A stretch of 53,992 nt of DNA from Opitutia bacterium (GTDB lineage: Bacteria; Verrucomicrobiota; Verrucomicrobiia; Opitutales; UBA2995), in the NCBI GenBank assembly GCA_014529615.1, contig JAABVD010000002.1, positions 1,750-55,741 on the forward strand, in the 5' to 3' direction. Both the position numbers and the translations under genes were made by a program. The notes below the pieces were generated by a model. It made no database searches. It saw nothing but the letters and a program-made list of their open reading frames with translations, and was not told where the DNA came from. Shown here one piece after another: positions 221-50,176 of this stretch. Each line of letters starts with the position of its first letter. Positions within the stretch are counted from its first letter, which is position 1.

Positions 221-3200
221 ATGTCCGCTACCAAAAACGAATTCGTCCACTTGCATTTGCATACTGATTACAGTCTGCTGGATGGAGCCTGCAGGATCGA
301 TCGATTGGCAGAAAGGGCAAAGGAATTGGGCATGCCGGCGGTGGCCATGACGGACCACGGCAATCTTTTCGGAGCCATCGATTTCTATAAGCCCCTCAAG
401 GGCGCCGGGTTGAAACCGATAATCGGCTGCGAGATCTACCTGGTGCACGATCACAAGATGGATGAGAAACCCCGCCGAAGGAGGAAGCGGACCGAGGACA
501 TAGGAGAATTGCCGGAGTATCGGGAATTGCAACCGGAGGAATTTCCCAAGCACCAGATTCACCACAAAACCGTGCTTTGTCGCGATTTCGAGGGATATCA
601 AAACCTGTCAAAACTGGTTTCCGAAGCCCATACGAAAGGACAATATTACAAACCACGCACGGACATGGAACGCCTGGCCGCCCACAGCAGGGGTTTGATC
701 GGGTTGAGCGGATGTATCAACGGGGTGGCCCCTCAGCACCTGCTCTACGGTAATTATGCGAAGGCCAGGGAGGTAACGGGGGAGTTCGTCGATATCTTCG
801 GCAAGGAAAACTATTTTATCGAACTCCACGATCACGGTCTTCAATTCCAAAGGAAAATTTTCCCGGGCTTGTTGAAGCTGGCTCGAGAATTCGACCTGAA
901 GGTGGTTTGCTCAAATGACGTGCACTACGTCAAAAAAGAGGACTGGCAGCCTCATGACGCGCTCCTCTGCATTCAAACCGGCCGGAAGCTGGCCGATGAC
1001 AATCGCATGAAGTACCCTTCCCGGGAGTTTTACCTGAAGAGCCGGGAGGAAATGCTGGAGGTTTTCCGGGAGGTGCCGGAATCGTTGGACAATACCCTGC
1101 TGGTGGCGGAAATGAGCGACCTGAAGATCCCCTTTGGCGGGAATCACTATCCGGTATTCGAAAAACCGGCGGAGGTATCGTTTCGGAAGGATCCGGACAA
1201 TTTCGACCGCATGCTGGAAATCTTCGTCTCGGAAAAGGAAAAGCTCAACCGGCAAAGCGGGACGGAGAACCCGGCCGAGGTGGACCGGTCCACCTTTGGG
1301 GCATGCCGCAATAACGGCCTCTTTCTTTTCGACCTGTGCAAAGGGGGGCTGAAGGAGCGTTACGGCATCGATTACGACCAAGTGCGAGGACCCGAGGCGG
1401 AAGCGCCCACCTCGGCGGAGGAAGGAAAGGGGGAAGCGCCCCCGGCCGAATCTCCGGAATTTGCCGCATTTCTTTGTTCGAAGCTGGAATACGAGTTGGC
1501 CATCATCGTGGGCACGGGATTTACCGACTACTTTCTCATTGTGTGGGATTTCATCGACTGGGCGCGGTCCCAGGGCATACCGATAGGCCCTGGGAGGGGA
1601 TCCGGGGCCGGAAGCCTGGTGTCCTTCGTGTTGAGGATCACGGATATCGAACCCCTGCGTTTCGGCTTGTTGTTCGAGCGGATGCTGAATCTGGCGCGCG
1701 TGTCTCCACCGGATTTCGACGTGGATTTTTGCATGCGGCGGCGGGATGAAGTGGTCCAATACGTGCGCGACAAATACGGGGAGGACGCCGTGGCCAACAT
1801 CATTACCTTTGGCAAATTCGGGGCCAAGATGGTGGTCCGCGATCTGGCCCGGGTGAACGATGTTCCCTACGCGGAAGCGGACCGGATGGCGCGGATGATC
1901 CCGGACGAACTCAATATTTCCCTGGAGGAATCGGTGGCAAAATCGGGAGAGTTGCGTGCGGAATTGGACAACAATCCGCTGGCGAGCTCCATTGTGGAGC
2001 AAGGTCAGGTCATCGAAGGGATGGTGCGCAATACGGGCAAGCACGCCTGTGGCATCATCATTGCCGATCAATCCATACACAACCTGATCCCGGTGACCAT
2101 GCAGGAGGGAGATTTGACCACTCAGTTTCCCAAGGGTCCGGTGGAGGACCTCGGCCTGCTGAAGATGGATTTCCTGGGATTGAAAACCCTGACGGTCATA
2201 TCCGACGCGCAGGAGAACGTCCGCCAAGCCAGGAACCTCCCGGATTTCGATATCGAAACCATCTCCCTGGACGATGCCAAAACCTTCGATCTGCTCAACA
2301 GCGGCGAGACTACGGGGGTATTCCAATTGGAGAGCGAGGGCATGCAATCGCTTTGCCGGCAAATCAGCCTGAGTTCCTTCGAGGAGATCATCGCCCTTAT
2401 CGCCCTCTACCGGCCCGGGCCGATGCAGTTCATTCCCCAGTTTGTCGAAGGGAAGAAGGATCCCTCCAGCCTGCGGGTTCCCCACCCTCTCTTGCAGGAT
2501 CTGGTGGGTGAAACCTATGGGGTGCTGGTCTATCAGGAACAGGTGATGGAGGCGGCCCGGATCATTGCCGGCTACACCTTGGAAGGGGCCGATATACTGC
2601 GCCGGGCCATGGGCAAGAAGATCAAATCGGTGATGGAGGCGCAAAAGGAGATCTTCGTCCATGGCGCCCGAATGCATAACGATATAGATGAGAGAACGGC
2701 CCTGGAAATTTTCGGCATCCTGGAAAAATTTGCCCAGTACGGATTCAACAAGTCGCACTCTGCCGCCTACGCGATTTTGAGTTATCGCACCGCCTACCTG
2801 AAGGCCAATTACCCGGTGGAATTCATGGCCGCGGTTCTTTCCAACGAACTGGGCAACGCGGACAAGGTGGCCCATTACATCGATGAATGCGCCGCCATGA
2901 AGGTAGCGGTCTTCGGGCCGGACATCAATATATCGCGGGAAAAGTTTACCCCGGTCATCGACACCGAGTCCGGACACGGGAGTATCCGCTTCGGATTGGC
3001 GGCCATCAAAGGCGTGGGTGACGCGGCCTCTCAAATGATCATTGCCAACCGGGAGGCGGAGGGTCCGTTTGAGGATTTCCATTCCTTCATGGACCGGGTC
3101 GACTCCAAGACGGTAAACCGGCGGGTTGTGGAATGCCTGATCAAATCGGGCGCGTTCGACGCTTTCGGGGAGGGCAGGCAAGCCCTGATGGAGGGGTTGG

Positions 3201-4072
3201 ACGTGGCTATCAGCGTCGCGGCCCAGCGTCAGCGCGACCGGGAACGCGGCCAGGAGTCCTTCCTGGACCTTCTGGGGGACCCCGATACTCTCAGCGGCAA
3301 CGGAAAGGGCATCGTTGTGAGCGAGACCGGGGATGGAGGGAAAATCCCTCAAATGCCCTTGGCGGAAAAGTTGCAATTTGAAAAGGAATTGCTGGGCTTC
3401 TACGTGTCGGGGCACCCCATGAGAGAGTTCGATGAACTGGCCCGGGACATAATCAGTTTTGATGCGGACAGGGCGAAGGAATTATCGGACCGGGCGACCT
3501 TCCGCTACTGCGGGGTCATTTCCAACGTGGTCAAAAAACTCTCGCGTCGGGATGACCGGCCCTGGGCCTTATTCAACATTTCCACCGAGTCGCACAATTT
3601 CAAGATGAACATGTTTGCCGAGGCTTTCGCAAGTTACGGACACATGTTGGTGGAAGGGAAAACTCTCGTGGCAAGTGGAACGGTAATAAACCGGGAAGCG
3701 GATGATCTGAGGTTTAGTGTGCGGGAGGTTTCCCCGCTTCGAAGCGCCATTCCCAAACTCATTCGGGAGGTGCGTTGGATCCTGAATGCGAAAGAAGACA
3801 CGGTGGATTTTCTACAAACCCTGCGCCGCGACCTGGATTCAAGGCGAGGGGGTAGCACGCGCTTGTTTATCGGCTTCCTTATTTCCGAAAATCAGGTGCT
3901 CTGGGGGGATATCGCCCCCGCCCTGACCTGGCTGGTTGAACCGAGGACCTTCACCGAGCTGAAAAACCATCCTTCGGTGGTTCAGGTCTCGACCACAACG
4001 GCTCCATTGGGGGAATTCGATTGGAACAACTCCTGGGAAGCGCCCAAGGGCGCGGGGAGAATGGTGGAGTGA
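221..4072 (+). CDS. dnaE: DNA polymerase III alpha subunit
   Basis: 1283-aa ORF with an ATG start. It has the N-terminal PHP motif [13 protein letters not shown] and the motifs [12 protein letters not shown] and [12 protein letters not shown] typical of DnaE. The last ~11 codons and the TGA stop lie inside repeat modules B and A. Confidence 0.98.
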
Positions 4073-4685
4073 TGGAGTGATGGAGTGATGGAGTGGTGGG
4101 GTGGTGGAGTGATGGGGAGGCGCGCTGGGGCGCGGGGGGAGAGGAGAGGACTCTCGCAAAGAGCGCATAGTAACGCAAAGATGGGGGAGATGCGCCCAAA
4201 AGCGCGAATGAGGAATTAGGAATTGGGGAGAGAGATCATGATCAGGATCACGATCAGGATCATGATTGGAGAGGGGGAGAGTTGCTGAGTTGCTGAGAGG
4301 GGAAAGTGTGTTTTTGCGCCTTTTGCGTTCTTTTGTGGCTATTTTTCCTATTTCCGATTGGCAGGTGGAAGTAGCTGTAGGAGCGGAATTATGCCGCGAT
4401 TTGGGTGAGGCTGTTTCGAGCAATCGCGGCGTAAAGCCGCTCCTACGTTTGAAAGCAGCCGAATATGTCTGCTCATCCCTTTGCGTCTCTTCGCGGGCTT
4501 CGCGAGAGTCTATTCCATAATCCTGTTCATCCTGTGCATCCATGTTTCACTTTGGAACCACCTGCCTCAGCAACTAAGCATCTTCGCATCTCTTATCCTT
4601 TGTGCCTCTGTGGTTAAAATGGGGAGAGAGGGGGGAGAGATCAGGATCATGATCACGATCAAGATCACGATTGGAGAGGGAGGGG
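4040..4685. repeat. Intergenic module mosaic R1 (B-A-B-J'-B-C-D-E-F-G-J-I-E'-K-D)
   Basis: Read directly from the sequence. The modules are (GGAGTGAT)n at 4063-4117 and GC hairpins at 4040-4054, 4119-4134 and 4192-4206. AATTAGG repeats lie at 4213-4226, (GATCAN)5 at 4234-4269 and (GAGTTGCT)2 at 4279-4297. The F block is at ~4307-4342 and the palindrome G at 4377-4446. J/I lie at 4478-4546, K at 4597-4622 and a second (GATCAN)5 at 4639-4674. The same modules recur at nine other loci. Confidence 0.85.
4377..4446. repeat. 70-bp nested palindrome (module G, REP-like)
   Basis: The arms are GTAGGAGCGGAATTATGCCGCGATT and AATCGCGGCGTAAAGCCGCTCCTAC. They are reverse complements except for the loops of an internal GCGG-N-CCGC mini-hairpin in each arm. 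Half copies lie at 10936-10960 and ~45731-45754. Confidence 0.8.
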
Positions 4686-4706
4686 TCCTGGCGGGAGGGT
4701 GTCGGG

Positions 4707-5279
4707 TTAACGGGAGTAGGCGTGACACAGGGCCACACCGGCCGCGTCGGCCTCGTCAAAAGCCAGGGCTTCGCCGAGGTCGAGCATTTGTTTAACGGTG
4801 TGGGCGATCTGATGCTTGCTAGCAAGGCCGTATCAAACGACCGCCTGCTTGATGCGCAATGGGGGGTACTCGAATACAGGCTTTTTCAGGGTAGCGGCGG
4901 CGGCGATAGCGGCGCCCCGGGCGGCTCCCAGGATCAGGGCGGTCTTGATATTTTGCACAAAAATGGTCTGTTCCAGGGCAACCGAGGTCACGGAAAATTG
5001 CTCAATCATTTCGCTGGTGGACTTGTAAATATAGGCTAGGCAATCCGGCATGGAAGCATTTGCTTTCATTTTCAAGGTGGCGCTTGCCAGGAGCTTCGGT
5101 GGCGAAACTTCCAAGGTTACCACGGCCAGGCCGGTAGCTCTCAGGCTCGGGTCGATACCCAAAATGACTCCGGAAGCTCGGCGGCGGGCCCGGCCGACAT
5201 TGGGGGCTTGGGCTTTTGATGGGGGCAACTTGCCAGCCAATTTCATGGCCCATAAATCGCGGGTAGACGGCTTTGGCAT
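4707..5279 (-). pseudogene. ruvC: Holliday junction resolvase RuvC interrupted by one in-frame TGA (4833-4835)
   Basis: The upstream part carries the RuvC motifs ILGIDPSLRATGLAVV, LEQTIFVQN and LRIKQAVV. After the TGA the same frame continues as YGLASKHQIAHTVKQMLDLGEALAFDEADAAGVALCHAYSR and ends at TAA (4707-4709). The TGA sits where RuvC proteins have the conserved Gly of VVG.G.A.K.Q. Confidence 0.8.
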
Positions 5280-5364
5280 TCGAGGGGAAGGTCAGGAGAT
5301 GAATAGGAAAAGGATGAGGCAACTATAGAGCACTGGACGGCTTATTCAAATTGAAATGGGTTAA

Positions 5365-5555
5365 GGCGCGCTGGGGCGCGCCAATTAGGAATTAGGAGGA
5401 GGAAAGGCACAAAGGCACAAGGGCACAAAGGGGGAAGCGCGCTGGGGCGCGGGGGGAAGGGAATGGTGGAGTGATGGAATGGAGGAGAGAGGGGGGAGAG
5501 AGATCAAGATCACGATCAGGATCACGATCAGGATCAGGATCAGGATTGGAGGGGA
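5365..5555. repeat. Intergenic module mosaic R2 (B-C-L'-B-A-D)
   Basis: The hairpin GGCGCGC-TGGG-GCGCGCC is at 5365-5382 and AATTAGG repeats at 5383-5396. GGAAAGGCACAAAGGCACAAGGGCACAAAGG lies at 5401-5431 and a second hairpin at 5437-5451. GGAGTGATGG is at 5465-5483 and (GATCAN)7 at 5502-5549. The B-C-L'-B block matches the reverse complement of 44519-44612. Confidence 0.85.
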
Positions 5556-5599
5556 GGGATGGATTGGTGAGGTTAAAACGCAAGGGTGGGAAATGCAGG

Positions 5600-6349
5600 T
5601 TAAAGGACGAGTTGCAGGCTGGCCAGAACGGTTATGGCCAAGGCAAACAGCTCAAATCCCTTCTGCGGAATATGGGCCAGGATGAAGCGACCCATTACAG
5701 CGCCGGCCAAAACGACCGGGATGATCTTCAGGCCGAACCAAAGGACTTCCGGAGTTACCACCTCGATGGACCAGAGAAAGGGAAACTTGAAAAGGTTGAG
5801 GAAGAGAAAGAACCAGGCTCCGGTGCCCATAAACTCCATCTTGGGCAGAGCCACGGCCAAAAAGAACAACATCATGACGGGGGCGGCCGAATTGGCCACG
5901 GTGGAAGTAAACCCGGCCAGCAGCCCGGTAATACCGATAAACCACCACGTATGGGGCAGGAGATCCGTTATGCCGCTAATCTTGAGGAAGTAGCTGCGGG
6001 CAATGTGTAAACTGACGAGGATCAACAGGCAAAACCCGATAAGCCTGCCCACGATCTCCTCATCGAGCCGGTCGAGCAGCAACCAGCCCGACAGGACCCC
6101 CACAATGGTCCAGGGAATGATGGGCAGGAGGTATTTCCAAACGGCGTGGCGGCGGAAAAAATAAAACGCGGCCCAATCCCCGATCATGAGGAGCATCAGA
6201 ACGAGACCGACGGACATCTTGGGTGGAAAAATCAGGGCGAATACGGCCACGGTGATGTTGGAGACCCCGAGCACTCCCCCTTTGGACAGTCCCACCAAAA
6301 AAGATCCGGTCAGGATCCAAAAAAGGATGGGTAAATCAAAAGGTTCCAT
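5600..6349 (-). CDS. TauE/SafE (TSUP) family anion exporter, membrane protein
   Basis: 249-aa, highly hydrophobic multi-TM ORF with an ATG start. The N-terminal LVGLSKGGVLGV and the repeated G-rich TM pattern are typical of DUF81/TauE proteins. Confidence 0.75.
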   Translation of the reverse strand: MEPFDLPILFWILTGSFLVGLSKGGVLGVSNITVAVFALIFPPKMSVGLVLMLLMIGDWAAFYFFRRHAVWKYLLPIIPWTIVGVLSGWLLLDRLDEEIVGRLIGFCLLILVSLHIARSYFLKISGITDLLPHTWWFIGITGLLAGFTSTVANSAAPVMMLFFLAVALPKMEFMGTGAWFFLFLNLFKFPFLWSIEVVTPEVLWFGLKIIPVVLAGAVMGRFILAHIPQKGFELFALAITVLASLQLVL

Positions 6350-10775: not shown

Positions 10776-11063
10776 CACAGATTTCACGGATGGGAACGGA
10801 TGGGAAAGTTCGTTAAGCTCACGAATTAGGAATTAGGAATTAGGAATTGGGAATGGATTAGAGTTTCTGAGTTTCTGAGTTGCTGAGATGGGAAAGTGCA
10901 TTTTAGCGCCTTTTGCGTTTTTTTGTGGCTAAAAAGATCGCGGCATAAAGCCGCTCCTACAGTGCTGCCCCATCCGTGTCCATCCGTGAAATCCGTGGTC
11001 AATTTTCCACCACTCCACCTCTCCATCATTCCCTTTCCCTTCTCTTCCCGCGCCCTTAGGCGC
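10776..11063. repeat. Intergenic module mosaic R3 (H'-C-E-F-G half-H-A'-B')
   Basis: H' at 10776-10804 and H at 10969-10998 are ~29-nt inverted repeats (about 26/29 matching). They bracket AATTAGG x4 (10823-10856), GAGTTTCT/GAGTTGCT x3 (10861-10887), the F block (10896-10931) and half of palindrome G (10936-10960). The C-E-F-G order is the same as in R1. Confidence 0.85.
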
Positions 11064-11481
11064 ATTCCCCCAGGCAGGTAACGGTGATTTGCCGATGGTG
11101 GGAGGCGACGCGGTGCTCCCAGAGGTAAAGGCCCTGCCAAGTTCCCAGGAGCAGTCGGCCCTGCAAAACAGGTATGGATTCCGAAGATCGGGTCAAGGCC
11201 ATCTTTATGTGACTGGGCATGTCGTCGGGACCTTCATAGGTATGGGTGAAATGGGGATCATCATCCGGCACCAGTCGATCCAGGAAATTTTCCAAATCCC
11301 TCCGAGCGGAAGGGTCCGCATTTTCCATCAGGACCAAGCTGCAACTGGTATGGCGACAGAAAGCGGTAATCTGGCCGGTTTGTAGGCGGGATGCCCTGAG
11401 CGCATTCCGGACAAAATGGGTAATTTCGTAAGTGCCCTTGCCGGAGGTTCTCAGAGTAAAGGATTCTTGGTGGACCTTCAC
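11056..11481 (-). CDS. yjbQ: YjbQ/UPF0047 family protein (secondary thiamine-phosphate synthase-like)
   Basis: Family motifs HTSCSLVLMENADP, EGPDDMPSHIK and GRLLLGTWQGLYLWEHR are present. The start is GTG. The last codons and the stop lie inside repeat module B'. Confidence 0.85.
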   Translation of the reverse strand: MKVHQESFTLRTSGKGTYEITHFVRNALRASRLQTGQITAFCRHTSCSLVLMENADPSARRDLENFLDRLVPDDDPHFTHTYEGPDDMPSHIKMALTRSSESIPVLQGRLLLGTWQGLYLWEHRVASHHRQITVTCLGECA

Positions 11482-16951: not shown

Positions 16952-18529
16952 TCATTCCGGGAGGTAACCCCTGGCCAACGCATTGAACGCCCTCACCTGC
17001 TCTTCGACCCAGTCGTCGCCGTGACCCAGTTCGCGCGCCATGACGCGTGCAACGGCGGGCGCGGCCGCCACGGCCGCCCTCGCGTTGAGGAAGAGTGCGC
17101 GGGTTCGCCGCGCGAGCACATCGTCGAGCTGAACGGCCATCTCACTTTTCGCCGCCCACGCGGCTTGGCTCAACCGGTAGGGCAGGCTCGGATGCATGAG
17201 GCGCGTCAGGCGCTCGTCCTCAGCCTCCAGTTGGCGGATGGCTTCGGCGTCGCTACCGTACATCCTCCAGGGGTCGAGAATGTCTCGCCGGGTGGAATAG
17301 CCGTGCAGCCGCAGCCTCGCCGTGACCGAATGGGCGCTGGACAGGCGGCCCACTTCGGCGGCCCTACCGACCGCGTCCTGCGCGACCTTACGGCAGGTGG
17401 TCCACTTGCCGCCGGTGACGGTGACGAGTCCGCGCCGGGAGACACTCACGCTGTGGTCGCGCGACAGCGCCGCGGTATCCTGATCGGGACCGGATGCCGT
17501 GAGACCCCGCAACCCGGCCCAGGCGGAGAGGATGTCCGCACGCCTGATCGTTCGCGTGAGATAGCCCCCCGCATGGTCGATCAGGTAGTCCACCTCGGCC
17601 GCGCTGGGAATCGGTTCCTGCGAGGGCTCTTCCACCGGGATGTCGGTCGTCCCGATAAGCACGTGGCCGTGCCAGGGAATTGCGAAGAGGATGCGCCCGT
17701 CGTCGGTCGAGGGGACCAGCAAGGCCGTGCGGCCCGGTAGAAAGGCGTTGCTCACCACGATGTGTACGCCCCGGCTGAGCATGACCGAGGGAGCCAGGCG
17801 CGGTTCGTCCATCCGGCGCAGCGAGTCGGCGAATGGACCCGCAGCGTTGACCACCACCGCCCCGCGCGCGACCCACTCGTTTCCGCCGAGGAGATCCCGA
17901 ACCTCGACCCCCTTCACTTTCCCCCGCGCTTCGACCAACCCCACCACTTCCGCGTAGTTCAGCGCGACGCACCCCAGGTTGGCGGCGGTGCGGATGAAGG
18001 CCCATCCCAGGCGGGCGTCGTCGAACTGCCCGTCGTAGAAGAGGACGCCGCCACGGAGATGGTGGCTGTGTAGCGTCGAGAGGTGTTTGAGGGATTCGCG
18101 GCGGCTTACCAGGCGCGAGGAGCCGAGGTTCCGGCCCAAGGCCAGGGCGTCGTAGAGCTTGAGGCCCAGTCCGTACCATGGGCGCTCCCACCAGCGATAC
18201 GCCGGCACCAACAGCGGCAGGCTCCGGACCAGATGCGGCGCGTTGGCCCGGAGGCGGCGCCGTTCATCCAACGCGCGGTAGACGAGCCCGATCTGACCCT
18301 GACGGAGGTACCGGACCCCACCGTGGATGAGCTTGGTGCTGCGGCTGGATGTGCCGCTCGTGAAATCGCCGCGTTCCACCAGGAGGGTCCGGTAACCGCG
18401 CGCCGAGGCGTCGAGGGCGGTGGCGAGCCCGATGCAGCCTCCCCCGACCACGATGATGTCCCAGGAGCGCAACTGTGTTGCCCGGTCGAGCATGTAGCTG
18501 CGGGGAAGTGCGCGTAAGGATTCGGACAT
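16952..18529 (-). CDS. glpD: FAD-dependent glycerol-3-phosphate dehydrogenase
   Basis: It has the dinucleotide-binding motif DIIVVGGGCIGLATALDASARG and SGTSSRSTKLIHGGVRYL. The ATG is at 18529; the ORF track extends to a TTG at 18565. GC is much higher than in the flanks: sampled 60-nt lines give ~68-77% against ~47% in gyrB. Long shadow ORFs appear in other frames. Confidence 0.92.
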   Translation of the reverse strand: MSESLRALPRSYMLDRATQLRSWDIIVVGGGCIGLATALDASARGYRTLLVERGDFTSGTSSRSTKLIHGGVRYLRQGQIGLVYRALDERRRLRANAPHLVRSLPLLVPAYRWWERPWYGLGLKLYDALALGRNLGSSRLVSRRESLKHLSTLHSHHLRGGVLFYDGQFDDARLGWAFIRTAANLGCVALNYAEVVGLVEARGKVKGVEVRDLLGGNEWVARGAVVVNAAGPFADSLRRMDEPRLAPSVMLSRGVHIVVSNAFLPGRTALLVPSTDDGRILFAIPWHGHVLIGTTDIPVEEPSQEPIPSAAEVDYLIDHAGGYLTRTIRRADILSAWAGLRGLTASGPDQDTAALSRDHSVSVSRRGLVTVTGGKWTTCRKVAQDAVGRAAEVGRLSSAHSVTARLRLHGYSTRRDILDPWRMYGSDAEAIRQLEAEDERLTRLMHPSLPYRLSQAAWAAKSEMAVQLDDVLARRTRALFLNARAAVAAAPAVARVMARELGHGDDWVEEQVRAFNALARGYLPE

Positions 18530-18628
18530 TGGTGTGGTCGGCTGCTTCCTGAACTTGAGTTCCAAACGCCCCTATTGGGATGGCAATCGTCCTGTGGCGG
18601 CAATGGTGCGGACGCTAATCATCCGCCG

Positions 18629-27991: not shown

Positions 27992-29437
27992 TTATCGGGT
28001 GCGAAGGCGCTGATTGCGGCAAGCGCGCTCAACCCGTTCGAGGTAATTCTCCACCGGAATGGTATATTCCAAATCCAAGGCGTCTTTCAATAGCGATACG
28101 GCGTCGCAATAGAGCCTGTCATCGACCAGGATCTGGGAATAATCGATGAGCACTTGACGCTTGAACTCGTCGTCACCCAGCTCAGTGGCCATTTCGAAGT
28201 ATGTACGGGCTTCTTCAAAGCTGTCGAGGGCTTCTTCTTCATTATCGGCGGCTCTCGATTTCCTGCTTTGGGAATGGTGGTATCTCGCCAGCAGGAGGAC
28301 GGTATCCTTATCTTCGGGATCAATATCCAAAATTTCTTCCAACAACTTGATGGCTATGGCCGAACCGCGTTCCAGGGCAATCGCCACCCTGGCTTCAAGG
28401 CGGAGCAGGCTCAGGTGATGTTCATCACTCAGGGTATCGGAAAATACCCGCCGAATGGTTTTAATGATGGTTTCGCCATTTGTCCAAAACCCGCGAGCGA
28501 TGACAATCTCGGCCGTCCTGACCGGTCGATCCTGATCCTGGGCCGGATCGAGTTCTATGGCATCCACATGAGCTTCGGTAGCCAACTCCAATTGATTCTC
28601 GTTCAGGTATATGTCGCCGAGACGACTCATGGTTTCATAGGTCGCCTGGCCCATGCGCCGAACGATTTCATAGTTTGCCGCGGCGTCCAGGGGTTGATCC
28701 AAGGCGATGAAGGAGTTGGCCTGAAGGATGAGGAAGTCCGACTGATCCTTGGTTTCTTCAGCCCGGGCGATCATTTCCTCGAAGAGGGAAATGGATTCCA
28801 AATGCTTTTCCTGTTTGAGCAAGGTGGAGGCCAGCCCCTTATACCAGTCCAGGGTATCGGGATCGGCCACGATAGCCTTTTTATAGGCGCTTTCGGATTC
28901 CAGGATTTTTTCCTGATTGAGGTAAATCATGCCCAGGAGGCCGAAGGTCCGGGCATCGTCCGACCCCAGTTGAGTGGCCTTGTTGAAGGCTCCGGCCGCT
29001 TTATCCCACGCATCTTTCTGCAAATGGCAATAGCCGATCAGTTTGTGCGCGGCTTGAAAGGTGGGCCATTTGAGGACGGCTCTGTTAAAATATCTCAGGG
29101 CCTGATCCAGGTTGTCCACCCGGTAAAAATGTAAGCCCAGGGTAAAATCGAGGGCCGCGCTGGCATCCCGTCCGATGGAGGACTGGAGATAAGCCAGGGC
29201 CCTGGCATCCTGCTTTTTTGCAATGAAGTCATGATAGGTTTTTAGAATCTCCTGTTCCTCCGACTTCACCGTGGGCAATTTGGCGCCCTGGGCCATCAAA
29301 TCCCGGTAGTATTCGTCGAAATATCCCGGTTTTCGCCAAAACCGCATGTCGACTTTCCCGGAAACCTGGATACAAAAACCCAGCGCAGTGAGGCCGCACA
29401 AGGTCAGACGAAATAGCGAATAACCGAAAGGATTCAT
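27992..29437 (-). CDS. TPR-repeat protein, terminal gene of TonB2-type module 1 (TtpD-like position)
   Basis: It has a signal-like N-terminus and many 34-aa A/Y/L-patterned repeats. It is the last gene of the DUF3450 / long ExbB / ExbB / ExbD / TonB operon. Confidence 0.7.
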   Translation of the reverse strand: MNPFGYSLFRLTLCGLTALGFCIQVSGKVDMRFWRKPGYFDEYYRDLMAQGAKLPTVKSEEQEILKTYHDFIAKKQDARALAYLQSSIGRDASAALDFTLGLHFYRVDNLDQALRYFNRAVLKWPTFQAAHKLIGYCHLQKDAWDKAAGAFNKATQLGSDDARTFGLLGMIYLNQEKILESESAYKKAIVADPDTLDWYKGLASTLLKQEKHLESISLFEEMIARAEETKDQSDFLILQANSFIALDQPLDAAANYEIVRRMGQATYETMSRLGDIYLNENQLELATEAHVDAIELDPAQDQDRPVRTAEIVIARGFWTNGETIIKTIRRVFSDTLSDEHHLSLLRLEARVAIALERGSAIAIKLLEEILDIDPEDKDTVLLLARYHHSQSRKSRAADNEEEALDSFEEARTYFEMATELGDDEFKRQVLIDYSQILVDDRLYCDAVSLLKDALDLEYTIPVENYLERVERACRNQRLRTR

Positions 29438-39635: not shown

Positions 39636-39704
39636 TAGCGATCTAGCAAAAGAGCCGAAGCACGGCCTGCAATCTAATTCTCACCGCCACCTGCCTCGAG
39701 ACGG

Positions 39705-40105
39705 AATGATGGAGTGGTGGGGAGAGGGAGTGATGGAGTGTTGGAGTGTTGGGGAGAATTGGGAGTGGATGGCTCTCAATCGTGATCTTGATCATGATCC
39801 TGATCGTGATCTCTCACCCTCATTCCTGAATCGCTCCTTTGGCGCATTCCCCTCTCCCTCCCTCACTTTGTGCCTTCCCTGTCACGCCGTAGACCATCGG
39901 CGGAGGCGGATGTGCCCCTGTGCCTTTCTCCCTCCTTTTGTGTTTTTTGTGCCCTTTGTGGTTATTTATCCGTGTTCATCCGTGGAATCCGTGGTTTCTC
40001 TCCCATTCTTTTTTCTCTTCTCCCTCTCTGTGCTCTGTGGCCTCTGTGGTTAAAATGCGGAGATTGGAAGAGAGATCACGATCAGGATCAGGATTGGAGA
40101 GAAAA
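39705..40105. repeat. Intergenic module mosaic R4 (A-D'-B'-L-H-K-D)
   Basis: GGAGTGATGG-type octamers lie at 39705-39760. An inverted (GATCAN)5 array has GATC at 39784, 39790, 39796, 39802 and 39808. GTGCC(T/C)(T/C)T octamers are at ~39868-39960, CCGTGTTCATCCGTGGAATCCGTGG at 39969-39993 and CTCTGTGCTCTGTGGCCTCTGTGGTTAAAATG at ~40026-40057. A (GATCAN)3 array is at 40074-40097. Confidence 0.85.
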
Positions 40106-41554: not shown

Positions 41555-41634
41555 GGGAGTGGTGGAGTGATGGGGAGAATTGGGAATTAGGGGAAAGAGA
41601 TCACGATCAGGATCACGATCACGATCAAGATAAC
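41555..41634. repeat. Intergenic module mosaic R5 (A-C-D)
   Basis: The sequence reads GGAGTGGTGGAGTGATGGGG, then GAGAATTGGGAATTAGG. A (GATCAN)5 array follows with GATC at 41599, 41605, 41611, 41617 and 41623. Confidence 0.85.
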
Positions 41635-41737: not shown

Positions 41738-42961
41738 ATGAATTCACTTTATATCCATCGCTCTCTGGAATCGGTCCTCATAAAGGCGACATCCGAGTTT
41801 CCCGCCGTGATCCTGACTGGACCGCGGCAATCAGGCAAGACGACTCTGCTGAAATATCTTTTCCAAAAGCGTTTCAGCTATATATCTTTGGAGTTGCCGG
41901 ATGTTCGCGCGGCCGCAGCGGAGGACCCGCGCGGATTCTTGAAGCATTACCCCCCGCCAGCCATTTTCGATGAGGTGCAGTACGCCCCCGAGCTGCTTCC
42001 CTATATCAAGGAAATAATCGATCAGGACCGAGGCAGAAGCGGTCAATACCTGTTGACCGGCTCGCAGAATCTGTTGCTGGCGGAGAAGGTGACCGAGTCT
42101 TTGGCCGGACGCGCGGCCATCCTGCGCCTGTTACCGCTTTCGAAGCGTGAGGCGGAGGGACGGCCAAGTATCGATCTCGCTTGGGAAGGCAACTTCCGGG
42201 CCTCATCGCCAACCTCATTTTCTTTTGACAAACTGTGGAGGAACTTCCTTCGAGGCGGCTACCCGGAGCTTGCAACCCAACCCAACCGGAACATCTCCCT
42301 ATGGCATGCGAGTTACATCCAGACCTACCTGGAACGTGATGTGCGGACGCTTCGGCAGGTCGGCGACCTTACTCAGTATCAGAATTTCCTTCGTTTGCTG
42401 GCAGCCCGAAGTTCTCAGCTTTTCAACCTGACAGAAGTCGCCCGGACCCTCGGGGTTGCGGTCAACACGGTTAAAGCCTGGCTTTCCGTGCTTGAGGCCA
42501 CCTATCAGGTAATTGTGCTGCGCCCCTACTTCGCCAACGTCGGGAAGCGACTGGTAAAGACCCCGAAAGTGTATTTTACCGATACTGGCACACTTTGCTA
42601 CCTGGCGGGTCTCAAGGACCCCGAACATGCTGCATCCGGTCCCATGGGTGGCGCTATTATGGAAACAGCTGTGCTCTCGGAAATTCTCAGGACATTGACA
42701 CATCGGGGGATGGACCCGCAAATCTACTTTTGGCGGACCACGGCGGGAACGGAGGTCGATTTTGTGGTCGAGACCTCGGGTGGGTTGGTCCCCATCGAGG
42801 TCAAGCTGTCCGCCACACCGCGACCAGCCATGGCTGCAGCCATCAAGACATTTCAAGGTGACATGGGAAGCAAAGCAATGGCCGGATACGTGGTGCATCC
42901 CGGTGATATAGGCCTGCCCCTGGGTCCCAGCGTTACCGCACTGCCTTTCGCCAACCTTTGA
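41738..42961 (+). CDS. AAA-type ATPase with C-terminal DUF4143-like domain
   Basis: Walker A is GPRQSGKTTLL and Walker B is AIFDEVQY. The length and layout are typical of the AAA_14/DUF4143 family. Confidence 0.8.
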   Translation: MNSLYIHRSLESVLIKATSEFPAVILTGPRQSGKTTLLKYLFQKRFSYISLELPDVRAAAAEDPRGFLKHYPPPAIFDEVQYAPELLPYIKEIIDQDRGRSGQYLLTGSQNLLLAEKVTESLAGRAAILRLLPLSKREAEGRPSIDLAWEGNFRASSPTSFSFDKLWRNFLRGGYPELATQPNRNISLWHASYIQTYLERDVRTLRQVGDLTQYQNFLRLLAARSSQLFNLTEVARTLGVAVNTVKAWLSVLEATYQVIVLRPYFANVGKRLVKTPKVYFTDTGTLCYLAGLKDPEHAASGPMGGAIMETAVLSEILRTLTHRGMDPQIYFWRTTAGTEVDFVVETSGGLVPIEVKLSATPRPAMAAAIKTFQGDMGSKAMAGYVVHPGDIGLPLGPSVTALPFANL

Positions 42962-43085
42962 GGTTTGGCCCCCTTCGGATCCTCAAAAAGGAAATTGTTG
43001 AAAAAGGGTGGATTCGCAGCCAGCTTGGTAATTCAACCAAGGTATTGAGGAAGAAAGCCTTGGATCTCATCGCCTACCTGCCCCA

Positions 43086-44351
43086 ATGATATCCACCAAC
43101 CTGGAATTTTTTTCTGCTATCGAGGTCCAGGAAAAGGACCAGACCACCCATGATTTCGTATCATGGATTGAAAATTTCAATGCGTTTGGCACATCGACCC
43201 GGACCTACCGCATCCACGTGGGAAAACAACCGGTCCCCGTCTACGTCAACGAATTCTGGACTTCAAAGCAACGGGCGGCACACAGCCTGCACGAAGTTTC
43301 CTATCGGGCCTGCTTCAAGCCGCAGTTGCCCAGGTTTTTCATAGACCGGTTGACCACTGAAGGAGATACTGTCCTGGACCCTTTCATGGGCCGAGGCACC
43401 ACCCTGATCGAGTCGGTTCTAAGAAATCGTTTTGCCGCAGGTTGCGACGTAAATCCTCTCAGCAGAATAATTTGCGGCCCGAGATTAAACCCGCCTGGCA
43501 TGTCCCTGATTGCTTCCCGTCTGAATAAATTGAATTGGGACTTCAATGGGGAGGTCCCCGAGACATTGAAAGTCTTCTACCATACGGAAACGCTCCGGGA
43601 ACTGTGCGCTCTTCGCAGTTATTTTCATAAGAAGGGAAACGAGGCGGATGCCACCGACAATTGGATTCGGATGGTCGCCACCAATCGCTTGACGGGCCAT
43701 TCAAAAGGTTTCTTTTCCGTTTATACCCTCCCTCCCAATCAAGCTGTATCAGCAGAAAGGCAGCGACAAATCAACGCCAAGCGGGACCAGGTTCCCGACT
43801 ATCGAAACGTCGAAGAACTCATCTTGAAAAAGAGCAAGTCACTCCTGAGGGACATATCGCTTGGGGATCTGGGCCGATTTTCAACTTACGGCAGAAAGAG
43901 CAAAATCGTCATAGGATCCGCCCAGGAAGTGGAGGGAATCGGGCGGGGGTCCGTTTCACTGGTGGTAACGTCTCCCCCATTTCTCGATGTGGTCGATTAC
44001 GCCCGGGACAACTGGCTGAGGTGCTGGTTCAACCACATAGATCCCGGCGCTATTCCAATCTGGATTTTGAGGAATATCGAGGCCTGGAGCAACGCCATGA
44101 CACAGGCATTCAGACGGATGTTCGTCTTACTGAAAAAGGGGGGATACGTCGCCTTCGAAGTGGGAGAAGTGCGCAATGGAAAAGTCAACCTCGAGGACCA
44201 CGTAATCCCAGCGGCGGAGCGGGCGGGATTGATCCCGATATTGGTGCTCATAAATGATCAGGCCTTTACCAAGACCTCAAATTGCTGGGGAGTATCCAAT
44301 CTGAAGAAAGGAACCAACACCAACCGCTTCGTCCTCCTGAAAAAACCTTAA
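43086..44351 (+). CDS. SAM-dependent DNA (N4-C or N6-A) methyltransferase; no restriction partner visible
   Basis: YRACFKPQLP...DPFMGRGTT (the SAM-binding region) is at aa 72-106 and the catalytic-type motif TSPPF at aa 295-299. No nuclease-like ORF is adjacent. Confidence 0.7.
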   Translation: MISTNLEFFSAIEVQEKDQTTHDFVSWIENFNAFGTSTRTYRIHVGKQPVPVYVNEFWTSKQRAAHSLHEVSYRACFKPQLPRFFIDRLTTEGDTVLDPFMGRGTTLIESVLRNRFAAGCDVNPLSRIICGPRLNPPGMSLIASRLNKLNWDFNGEVPETLKVFYHTETLRELCALRSYFHKKGNEADATDNWIRMVATNRLTGHSKGFFSVYTLPPNQAVSAERQRQINAKRDQVPDYRNVEELILKKSKSLLRDISLGDLGRFSTYGRKSKIVIGSAQEVEGIGRGSVSLVVTSPPFLDVVDYARDNWLRCWFNHIDPGAIPIWILRNIEAWSNAMTQAFRRMFVLLKKGGYVAFEVGEVRNGKVNLEDHVIPAAERAGLIPILVLINDQAFTKTSNCWGVSNLKKGTNTNRFVLLKKP

Positions 44352-44361
44352 AGGTGGGGGG

Positions 44362-44612
44362 GAGCGCCCAAGGGCGCGAGGAGAAGGGTGGAGTGATGGA
44401 ATGAGGGAGTGTTGGAATGATGGAGAGAGAGGAGAGAGATCACGATCAGGATCACGATCAAGATCAAGATTGAGGGTCAACCGTGTAACCCGTGGTTATT
44501 CCCTTTCCCCTCTCTTCCTGTGCCCTTGGACGCTTCCCCACTTTGTGCCTCTGTGCCTTTGTGCCTCTGTGCCTTTCTCCCCCCTAATTCCTAATTCGCG
44601 CCCTTGGGCGCT
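44362..44612. repeat. Intergenic module mosaic R6 (B-A-D-...-L-C'-B')
   Basis: GCGCCCAAGGGCGC at 44364-44377 and its complement GCGCCCTTGGGCGC at 44598-44611 bracket the element. Inside are GGAGTGATGG octamers and a (GATCAN)5 array (GATC at 44438-44462 in 6-nt steps). GTGCCTCT/GTGCCTTT octamers lie at ~44545-44575, followed by CCTAATT repeats. Confidence 0.85.
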
Positions 44613-45697: not shown

Positions 45698-46035
45698 GGC
45701 GCGCTGGGGGCGCCTTGCGCCTCTCCCCAATCGGGGGATAAACCCCCTCCTACAGCTAAAAACCACCATTCTTCAGCCATTTTTTCGATCACGATCACGA
45801 TCAAGATCAAGATCAAGATCAGGATTGAGAGCCAACCTGTCCTGCCGTGGAAAGAAATCAGTGGCTAGGGGTTAGTGGCGAGAAATAAAGGAGGGCGGAC
45901 ACTCACTGTCTGCGTGCGGTAACCCACAGGTAGGCTGTCCTCCATTGCCCTTCTCCCCCATTCCTAATTCCTAATTCCTAATTCGCGCCCGTGGGCGCCT
46001 TCATCTGTGGTTATTCTTCTCTCTCTCAGCAACTC
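45698..46035. repeat. Intergenic module mosaic R7 (B-G half-D-unique ~125 nt-C'-B'-K-E')
   Basis: GGCGCGCTGGGGGCGCC is at 45698-45714 and ATCGGGGGATAAACCCCCTCCTACAG at ~45731-45756. A (GATCAN)6 array has GATC at 45787-45817. CCTAATT x3 is at 45961-45982, GCGCCCGTGGGCGCC at ~45985-45999 and CTGTGGTTATTCTTCTCTCTCTCAGCAACTCC at 46004-46035. The last ~75 nt are also the 3' end of the SRAP gene. Confidence 0.85.
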
Positions 46036-50109: not shown

Positions 50110-50176
50110 AATCGTGATCTTGATCTCTCTCCTTTTCCCCAATTCCTAATTCCCAATTGGCGCGCCCCAGCGCGCC
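50110..50176. repeat. Intergenic module mosaic R9 (D'-C'-B')
   Basis: The sequence is AATCGTGATCTTGATCTC (2 GATC), then CCAATTCCTAATTCCCAATT, then GGCGCGCCCCAGCGCGCC at 50159-50176. This is the reverse complement of the B-C-D order seen in R1. Confidence 0.85.

Follow-up and report, generated by a model that had tools for sequence, protein, structure and literature searches.

The stretch of DNA analyzed here, referred to as the window, comprises 53,992 nucleotides of contig JAABVD010000002.1 from an Opitutia bacterium. It is a piece of bacterial chromosome that carries housekeeping genes, including dnaE (221–4072), ruvC, tauE, gyrB, gyrA, rpsB, and carA, and RNA genes for RNase P RNA and two tRNAs. 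The spacers between its genes hold tandem arrays of a hexamer, GATCAN, in which GATC sites recur with exact 6-nt phasing. Nine such runs, with 43 GATC sites in total, had been listed in a preliminary description of the window, and reading of the sequence combined with a GATC count over the whole window recovered all of them at the same coordinates:

4234–4269, plus strand: (GATCAN) array, 5 GATC sites and a terminal GATT unit; sixth-base (N) string T, G, C, G, (T)
4639–4674, plus strand: (GATCAN) array, 5 GATC sites and a GATT unit
5502–5549, plus strand: (GATCAN) array, 7 GATC sites and a GATT unit, between tauE and ruvC; the index array
39777–39813, minus strand: (GATCAN) array, 5 sites, with the GATC run starting from 39784, in the divergent spacer between carA and LAM
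40074–40097, plus strand: (GATCAN) array, 3 sites and a GATT unit
41599–41634, plus strand: (GATCAN) array, 5 sites and a degenerate GATAAC unit
44438–44473, plus strand: (GATCAN) array, 5 sites and a GATT unit, just 3′ of a DNA methyltransferase gene
45787–45828, plus strand: (GATCAN) array, 6 sites and a GATT unit; second flank class, with TTTTTTC upstream and GATTGAGAGCC downstream
50110–50127, minus strand: (GATCAN) array, 2 sites, with the GATC run starting from 50116, 3′ of tRNA-Leu

The triple-GATC pattern GATCNNGATCNNGATC has 25 matches in the window, compared with 0.01 expected from dinucleotide-preserving shuffles, and Tandem Repeats Finder assigned periods of 6 and 12 to all larger arrays. 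The arrays are thus head-to-tail repeats of a short unit, of period 6 and with 2–7 units, as expected for a variable number tandem repeat (VNTR). The frequency of the word GATC as such is ordinary; the window holds 322 sites (Markov expectation, 342), of which 277 lie outside the arrays. One extra phased pair, at 28528, lies within a gene and is a chance pair. The preliminary description also stated that the arrays share their flanks, and this is largely correct: a GAGA-type linker precedes seven of the nine arrays, and a GATT unit ends eight. The exceptions are found at 45787, which is preceded by TTTTTTC, at 41599 and 40074, which have linker variants, and again at 41599, which terminates in GATAAC instead of GATT.

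Unit statistics were derived from interior units only, allowing up to two core mismatches, for the window arrays and their relatives in other genomes. Positions 1–5 of the unit (GATCA) have mismatch frequencies of 0.9–4.6% per position, whereas position 6 has a family-wide composition of 35% C, 29% G, 23% A, and 13% T. The A after GATC is 97–99.8% fixed, and the base preceding GATC is random. A palindromic GATC reader (Dam, SeqA, or MboI-type) would treat both flanks alike and cannot be the source of the fixed A. Among core variants, C>T at the C of GATC is the commonest. Sixth bases follow one another at random, as neighboring units share the same base at a frequency of 0.270 (0.280 ± 0.025 in shuffles), and the strings of sixth bases are nearly all unique among copies. 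An alternation of C and G, implying a 12-mer unit, had been proposed earlier; it is seen in few window arrays, and across the family recurrence at lag 2 (0.279) is at the level of shuffles (0.281 ± 0.031), so that a 12-mer periodicity was discarded as not significant. The near-saturation at position 6, compared with 1–5% mismatch elsewhere, argues for a putative constraint on GATCA, to which a mutational process specific to position 6 would be the sole neutral alternative.

The number of arrays falls off roughly geometrically with unit count (44, 31, 22, 5, and 2 arrays with 3, 4, 5, 6, and 7 units, respectively). This distribution, and the polymorphism in unit number between strains in steps of 6 and 12 nt that is described later, would be expected of neutral microsatellites, in which a GATCAN seed is expanded by replication slippage without a reader and without selection. 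In unrelated contigs of viral and metagenome origin, (GATCAN)n arrays, which served as the control, behave in this way, with neighboring units being identical at a frequency of 0.92 and 83 of 121 arrays having a single N, whereas neighbors in the present family share N at 0.27, close to the 0.28 expected by chance. Given this random succession of sixth bases, which the control microsatellites do not show, plain hexamer slippage is insufficient to explain the arrays. Furthermore, decay should hit all six positions equally rather than produce 1–5% mismatch at five positions and saturation at the sixth, and the linker and the GATT unit are conserved at about a hundred unlinked sites. The preliminary description had left room for simple slippage with no conserved flanks elsewhere in the genome; random N order and the flanks at these sites lead us to reject that scenario, and we regard a neutral microsatellite origin as very unlikely. 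A phage origin was dropped, the matches in viral contigs being unrelated, homogeneous, and mostly coding microsatellites. Hairpin or cruciform potential was also dismissed, since single-strand folds are weak (ΔG of −3.5 to −7.7 kcal/mol, z of −3.6 to +0.1), with fold strength being highest only where N is T, the rarest sixth base.

Flank statistics were obtained for 114 arrays from the window and related genomes. GAGA lies immediately 5′ of 66% of the arrays, with TTTC forming a second class (13%), and a GATT unit lies immediately 3′ of 76%. The surroundings are strongly polar. A GC palindrome occurs within 120 nt on the 5′ side of 39% of the arrays and on the 3′ side of 4%, and the adjoining 120 nt consist of at least 65% purines on the 5′ side of 54% and on the 3′ side of 10% (background, 6.4%). 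The typical composite reads, from 5′ to 3′, GC hairpin, (GAATTAG)n or (GGAGTGAT)n, GGGGAGAGA linker, (GATCAN)3–8, and GATT. Hence, the array is typically the 3′-terminal module of a polar, purine-rich composite. The other modules in the window are:

5484–5501, plus strand: G-rich GA linker of the GGGGAGAGA type, directly 5′ of the index array; others at 4225–4233, 4621–4640, 44422–44437, and 50126–50132 (minus strand)
4206–4226, plus strand: (GAATTAG)-like heptamer array, 5′ of the GATC array; others at 5382–5395, 10823–10850, 41577–41590, 44584–44597 (minus strand), 45957–45984 (minus strand), and 50139–50159 (minus strand)
4066–4097, plus strand: (GGAGTGAT)-like octamer array; others at 5460–5475, 39703–39750, 41556–41571, 44390–44429, and 11009–11032 (minus strand)
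5403–5426, plus strand: (AAAGGCAC)-like octamer array; others at 39912–39927 (minus strand) and 44545–44576 (minus strand)
5365–5382, no strand: GC-rich palindrome GGCGCGCTGGGGCGCGCC, with a very high summed word depth; related palindromes at 4040–4053, 4120–4133, 5437–5450, 44364–44377, 44598–44611, 45699–45713, 45985–45998, and 50159–50176
4377–4446, no strand: doublet resembling a REPIN (a doublet of repetitive extragenic palindromic [REP] sequences), GTAGGAGCGG...CGCGATT / AATCGCG...CCGCTCCTAC, with 25-nt arms and 20 nt between them

The REPIN-like element, of 74 nt, consists of two inverted GTAG-headed GC hairpins, the arms of which are 88% complementary, and about 35 copies of the GTAGGAGCGG... 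doublet were counted in the Opitutales loci that were fetched. The sequence features of REPs and REPINs (GTAG head, imperfect palindrome, inverted doublets, and high copy number) are thus seen in the hairpin next to the arrays and not in the GATC array itself. Further modules of the mosaics are (GAGTTGCT)n and CCACAGAGG-type units. Taken together, extragenic palindromes and short motifs occur here in many copies and in variable arrangement, which is the pattern of bacterial interspersed mosaic elements (BIMEs). The repeat mosaic (4040–4073) begins inside the end of dnaE, with the palindrome GCGCCCAAGGGCGC in the last codons of the gene and the stop codon TGA (4070–4072) belonging to the first GGAGTGAT unit. 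A mosaic at 10786–11060 is devoid of a GATC array; it is composed of CACGGATGG, four GAATTAG units, three copies of GAGTTTCT, half a REPIN (10940–10965), and GGAGTGAT. This mosaic has about 70 nt (GAGTTGCTGAG...TTTTGTGGCTA) in common with 4279–4345, which indicates that the other modules spread independently of the GATC arrays.

A scan with GAGAGATCANGATCANGATCANGAT of one genome per species returned 61 loci, of which 57 were from metagenome-assembled genomes (MAGs) of Opitutales; a single MAG, CBDCNU01, supplies 46 of these 57. The flanked motif had only 15 single matches in 241 million metagenome records. Based on these two results, the arrays form a lineage-specific, genome-wide family, present in a small number of Opitutales genomes from sponge metagenomes. 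Contigs with a TauE identical to that of the window were found in ENA metagenome assemblies and in a JGI record prefixed PetF, and the public runs that hold window DNA include some labeled sponge metagenome. Verrucomicrobial symbionts are on record for Petrosia ficiformis (PMC12648040). When contig word depth is summed, the arrays reach about 300–740× and unique DNA 4–7×, which suggests some 60–100 array equivalents per genome. The word depth of the GAATTAG, palindrome, and AAAGGCAC modules amounts to 1,200–4,900×. Contigs of short-read assemblies break at the repeats.

Turnover of the arrays was assessed by comparing the window with strain contigs that have an identical TauE or 99.0–99.8% DNA identity. 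The index locus at 5502, with seven sites in the window, has eight in L067 and L068; in L062–L064 it is split into two arrays (one of 6 sites plus a degenerate unit, the other of 5 or 7) with a mosaic block of about 460 bp in between. In the second array of this split locus, L062 shows two GATC>GCTC changes (at about 11240–11290), which are either rare core decay or a low-coverage assembly error. The five sites at 4234 are reduced to three in L064, i.e. by a 12-nt step, and the five units at 4639 are stable in L062–L064 and L067; beside the latter array, an 11-nt CCCCTCTCTCC unit is present in one or two copies depending on the strain, with variation also in public run X3. Compared with the window, strain L071 has one core change (GATC>GAAC) in the 39777 array, an identical 40074 array, a GATAAC unit at position 4 rather than 6 of the 41599 array (meaning that the order of units was shuffled), one unit less at 44438, and one unit less at 45787, along with two changes that are both at position 6. 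The 50116 array and its linker constitute a clean 29-nt indel that is absent in L072. The variable copy number claimed in the preliminary description is thereby borne out by differences at one and the same locus between strains (5502, 4234, 44438, and 45787).

The neighboring modules vary too. The (GAATTAG) array at 45957 has three or four units in different strains, the number of units in (GGAGTGAT)-like octamer arrays differs between strains, and the (AAAGGCAC)-like array shows a 16-nt (two-unit) indel at 44540 relative to L071. Over 12.5 kb, the window and L071 differ by 61 substitutions (0.49%) and by five indels of more than 1 nt, each of which corresponds to a change in the units of a repeat module. 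Within the arrays, there is a ninefold enrichment of substitutions (5 over about 126 nt; Fisher p = 3.6 × 10−4). At about 41497, 3′ of the aminomutase gene and outside the short-repeat modules, L071 has 48 extra nt.

Two regions permit comparison with more distant relatives. Locus L036, one of those returned by the scan, is orthologous to the 3′ end of the window at 91–97% identity; it matches the window exactly in the tRNA-Leu gene and the sequence right next to it, the arrays are located at different places, and the 50116 array is absent from its site. In L202, which is about 85% identical, a syntenic 20 kb contains no GATC array where the window has six, and few other modules. No arrays and essentially no modules are found in L203, L204, and L205 (84% and 67% protein identity; GC content of 0.46–0.50), except for a single CCACAGAG match in L203. 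Hence, the arrays are young and labile, which speaks against conserved locus-specific regulatory roles and fits repeats of the REP, BIME, or miniature inverted-repeat transposable element (MITE) type.

All arrays are intergenic, and the open reading frames (ORFs) that overlie some of them are short artifacts of repeat DNA. Only 11 of 92 arrays are in an open frame, compared with 91 of 121 control arrays, and GAT is never replaced by GAC in array units. Coding as Asp-His/Gln repeats is ruled out by the low proportion of open frames and the absence of GAC; as GAT is never GAC and ORFs are lacking, the arrays are non-coding. They are VNTR-like and change by gain and loss of units, shuffling of units, and indels of whole arrays and of array-bounded blocks. 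The spacers of 88 arrays are convergent in 34 cases, divergent in 21, and tandem in 33, and the 34/88 convergent spacers represent an enrichment over the baseline of 21% (p = 2 × 10−4). With respect to coding GC skew, 29 loci are concordant and 18 discordant in orientation, and neighboring arrays are co-oriented in 32 cases and opposed in 26. The correlation with coding GC skew is weak (Spearman 0.35, p = 0.006), and a strictly polar element of the kind represented by FtsK-orienting polar sequences (KOPS) or Chi was rejected.

Some observations would suit a cis-regulatory or RNA element, such as a phase-variable promoter spacer, a terminator or mRNA-stability element, or a platform for an RNA-binding protein. 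Variation in unit number would alter spacing, and some arrays lie 50–150 nt upstream of start codons in the same orientation (39784 with carA, and 40074 with LAM). In its phasing, its asymmetry, and its free sixth base, the GATCA motif is reminiscent of the sites of ring-shaped RNA-binding proteins. A role as a transcribed, multi-site platform for an RNA-binding protein has been suggested for the TAACTGA heptamers of Beggiatoaceae (PMC4679880). However, no rule of orientation or distance relative to genes emerged among the 88 arrays, 39% of them are in convergent spacers, which lack a promoter, and position is not conserved at about 85–95% identity. Scans for promoter-like and terminator-like sites showed no enrichment at the arrays. 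In the window, Rfam gave only RNase P RNA and the two tRNAs at gathering score and, at E ≤ 1 over 3900–5700, nothing credible; among the public sequencing runs that contain window DNA, there is no RNA run. Altogether, we deem a cis-regulatory or RNA function improbable.

The same results distinguish the arrays from contingency loci, where the repeat sits in an ORF or a specific promoter; the arrays are intergenic, at no fixed distance from genes, and lack promoter enrichment. Like the simple sequence repeats (SSRs) of contingency loci, they differ in unit number between close strains of a host-associated bacterium. Those SSRs are usually homogeneous, with units of 1–7 nt, and are located in ORFs or promoter spacers of surface or restriction–modification genes, whereas GATCAN arrays are heterogeneous at one position and occur in all spacer types, mostly convergent ones.

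Dense GATC clusters are targets of Dam-type methylation and of proteins such as SeqA and MutH, and the preliminary description had raised this reading together with a speculative link to a methyltransferase gene in the window:

43086–44351, plus strand: accessory DNA methyltransferase, 421 amino acids; motif I VLDPFMGRGTT, motif IV SPPF

An epigenetic GATC platform would combine a Dam-type or other GATC methyltransferase with a reader of methylated or hemimethylated sites and could act in sequestration, replication timing, or switching. The 43 exactly phased GATC sites in about 330 nt, the conserved GATC core, and the location of the methyltransferase gene next to the 44438 array are in line with this idea, and C>T as the commonest core variant, together with the GATT ends, would fit cytosine methylation and deamination. 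In the enzyme, VLDPFMGRGTT precedes SPPF by about 190 residues. Motifs of the form SPP[FY] are characteristic of N4-cytosine methyltransferases, and those of Dam-type enzymes read DPPY or NPPY. The protein covers only the motif-I part of PF01555; in structure, it is weakly related to a putative modification methylase and to enzymes of the N4-cytosine type. Together with an AAA_14/DUF4143 ATPase gene, it forms a two-gene accessory insertion (41738–44351) between the genes for a Na/Ca exchanger and lysine-2,3-aminomutase. L071 and L202 have this pair, which is missing from the syntenic loci L203 and L204, and L202 combines the methyltransferase with a lack of any GATC array in its 20 kb. Look-ups of the exact proteins (exchanger, methyltransferase, and P0003) returned nothing on record.

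Dam and SeqA recognize GATC irrespective of its flanks, whereas the unit studied here is asymmetric, with a fixed A after GATC and a random base before it, and GATC outside the arrays is as frequent as expected. No SeqA or MutH is known outside some Gammaproteobacteria. The Dam/SeqA clusters of Escherichia coli (oriC, the dnaA promoter, pap, and agn43) are similar in having a local GATC density far above background. Spacing in those clusters is irregular, each genome has few of them, their positions are conserved, and they are read as palindromes; GATCAN arrays, by contrast, have an exact 6-nt phase, an asymmetric unit, about a hundred copies per genome, and no positional conservation. We therefore did not retain the reading of the arrays as Dam, SeqA, or MutH targets. 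As the enzyme lacks a Dam-type motif and is encoded by an accessory gene whose presence does not track the arrays, the neighboring methyltransferase appears not to be implicated in them, and an epigenetic platform is quite unlikely. Dense GATC alone is no sign of Dam-type biology, and the data do not support new methylation biology.

The structure of the composites raises the question of mobility. Linker, array, and GATT, or the whole composite, might be a small mobile element mobilized by a strand-specific enzyme that recognizes GATCA, for example a REP-associated tyrosine (HUH) transposase (RAYT); the motif would then be conserved since only intact copies would propagate. Several features fit such an element, namely the polarity of the composite, one end of which is a GC hairpin, the REPIN-like GTAG-headed doublets in the same mosaics, the clean 29-nt presence or absence of array plus linker, the different insertion sites in close relatives, and the enrichment in convergent spacers, which is typical of REP/MITE-like elements. 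The asymmetric motif would fit single-strand recognition. On the other hand, no transposase gene was seen among most window genes scanned or in strain-locus annotations (a genome-wide RAYT search was not made), neither target-site duplications nor terminal inverted repeats are present, and the nearly unique N strings are unlike those of a recent burst. The block of about 460 bp in the split 5502 locus was considered as a mobile unit and rejected, because no complete copy of it exists elsewhere and the modules that are patched together in it are distributed independently of one another. This suggests that modules recombined with each other and speaks against a single, defined transposon. Overall, a mobile element of this kind is an unlikely account of the arrays.

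The interpretation that we favor, with a probability of about 0.6 for the whole, starts from what we regard as shown: the arrays are one module of a lineage-specific intergenic mosaic that resembles BIMEs and the short tandemly repeated repetitive sequences (STRRs) of cyanobacteria, recently expanded in an Opitutales lineage found in sponge metagenomes. The conservation of the 5′ linker and 3′ GATT unit at about a hundred unlinked sites indicates that whole modules are of common descent. New copies would arise when linker–array–GATT modules are copied and pasted, or recombined, into existing mosaics, and later change may proceed by slipped-strand mispairing and recombination between arrays. 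From the near-invariance of the pentamer, set against a sixth base of random identity and order, we infer that GATCA could be read by a sequence-specific factor, either on a single strand (DNA or RNA) or through asymmetric binding to duplex DNA. Candidates for such a reader are a host DNA-binding or DNA-modifying protein and the enzyme that propagates the modules.

Several points weigh against this interpretation. The putative GATCA reader is deduced from sequence; the core constraint is likewise derived from a contrast inside the repeats, and an equal pattern would result from site-specific hypermutation at position 6 or from a copying process that leaves the sixth base unspecified. The copy-and-paste step is deduced from shared flanks and indels, and neither a transposase nor target-site duplications or terminal inverted repeats were found, with most window genes scanned. 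In addition, the fetched loci were chosen for carrying an array, so that densities and co-occurrences within them are biased upward, and orthologous comparison beyond the strain level comprises two regions only (L036 and L202).

A further proposal is that the arrays have been selected as multi-site platforms for a strand-asymmetric GATCA reader, which could be a nucleoid protein, a protein binding single-stranded DNA or RNA, or a modification enzyme. We consider this proposal rather unlikely. If true, it would mean a new genome-wide system of cis-elements in sponge-symbiont Opitutales, with site strength being tuned by rapid change in unit number.

Among known systems, the BIMEs and REP/REPIN elements of E. 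coli and Pseudomonas are similar in being extragenic, high-copy mosaics of GC palindromes and short motifs in variable order, in being enriched at gene 3′ ends and in convergent spacers, and in their quick turnover between strains; the REPIN-like doublets in the present mosaics add to this likeness. Classical BIMEs, for which binding by IHF, DNA gyrase, or Pol I is characteristic, do not contain tandem arrays of 6–8-nt units, and the mosaics described here belong to a different phylum, Verrucomicrobiota. Intergenic SSRs and STRRs with units of 6–9 nt occur as hundreds of arrays per genome, with 2 to about 26 units (PMC4692102). GATCAN arrays share with cyanobacterial STRRs and with the GGGNATC SSRs of Xanthomonas and Nostoc an abundance of intergenic arrays, over-representation in non-coding DNA, variable unit number, and a degenerate position (PMC4692102), and the GAATTAG heptamers beside them resemble STRRs. 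In contrast to STRRs, which have a heptanucleotide unit and are found in cyanobacterial genomes, the GATCAN unit is a hexamer and its host lineage is Opitutales; GATCAN also lacks G-tracts, and hence the G-quadruplex rationale, and is one module of a multi-family polar composite. Whereas GGGNATC SSRs have a bias for four units (PMC4692102), GATCAN arrays have no preferred unit number. The TAACTGA repeats of marine Beggiatoaceae, Cyanobacteria, and Bacteroidetes are also lineage-restricted intergenic arrays of a short asymmetric unit, with 2–6 or more copies at more than 100 sites per genome and proposed protein binding (PMC4679880). They are mostly located a few nt upstream of start codons, whereas neither the position nor the orientation of GATCAN arrays is fixed with respect to genes.

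Our literature search found no description of GATCAN arrays or of such mosaics in Verrucomicrobiota, and the arrays look like an addition, from this phylum, to the known class of abundant intergenic short repeats. Abundant 6–9-nt intergenic repeats are on record for cyanobacteria, xanthomonads, and Beggiatoaceae, and the arrays seem to be a clean new example from another phylum and an uncultured, sponge-associated bacterium. Strain-level long-read assemblies already capture the change in these repeats, and the pairing of an invariable, asymmetric pentamer with a sixth base that varies at random suggests a specific reader, which might be isolated. In practical terms, the mosaics break short-read assemblies, create spurious ORFs, and could be used as strain markers.

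Some further observations concern the window as such. The window opens with an unbroken run of 76 C (1–76) immediately upstream of dnaE, which in all likelihood is an artifact of the contig end or of sequencing. In ruvC (minus strand, about 4740–5279), four clustered substitutions at 4821–4835 create a premature stop, giving 148 instead of 179 amino acids; the gene is intact in strain contigs L062–L064 and L067 and in public runs X1–X3, and the stop in the window either results from misassembly or marks a strain-specific pseudogene. A gene for a GlpD-like, FAD-dependent oxidoreductase (DAO and DAO_C domains) at 16952–18565 (minus strand) lies inside a 1-kb stretch with 69% GC, compared with about 55% for the window, and may be of foreign origin. 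Over the whole window, CTAG (15 observed, 38 expected) and GTAC (37 observed, 99 expected) are strongly under-represented and TCGA (301 observed, 235 expected) is over-represented; the avoidance of GTAC might stem from a restriction system.

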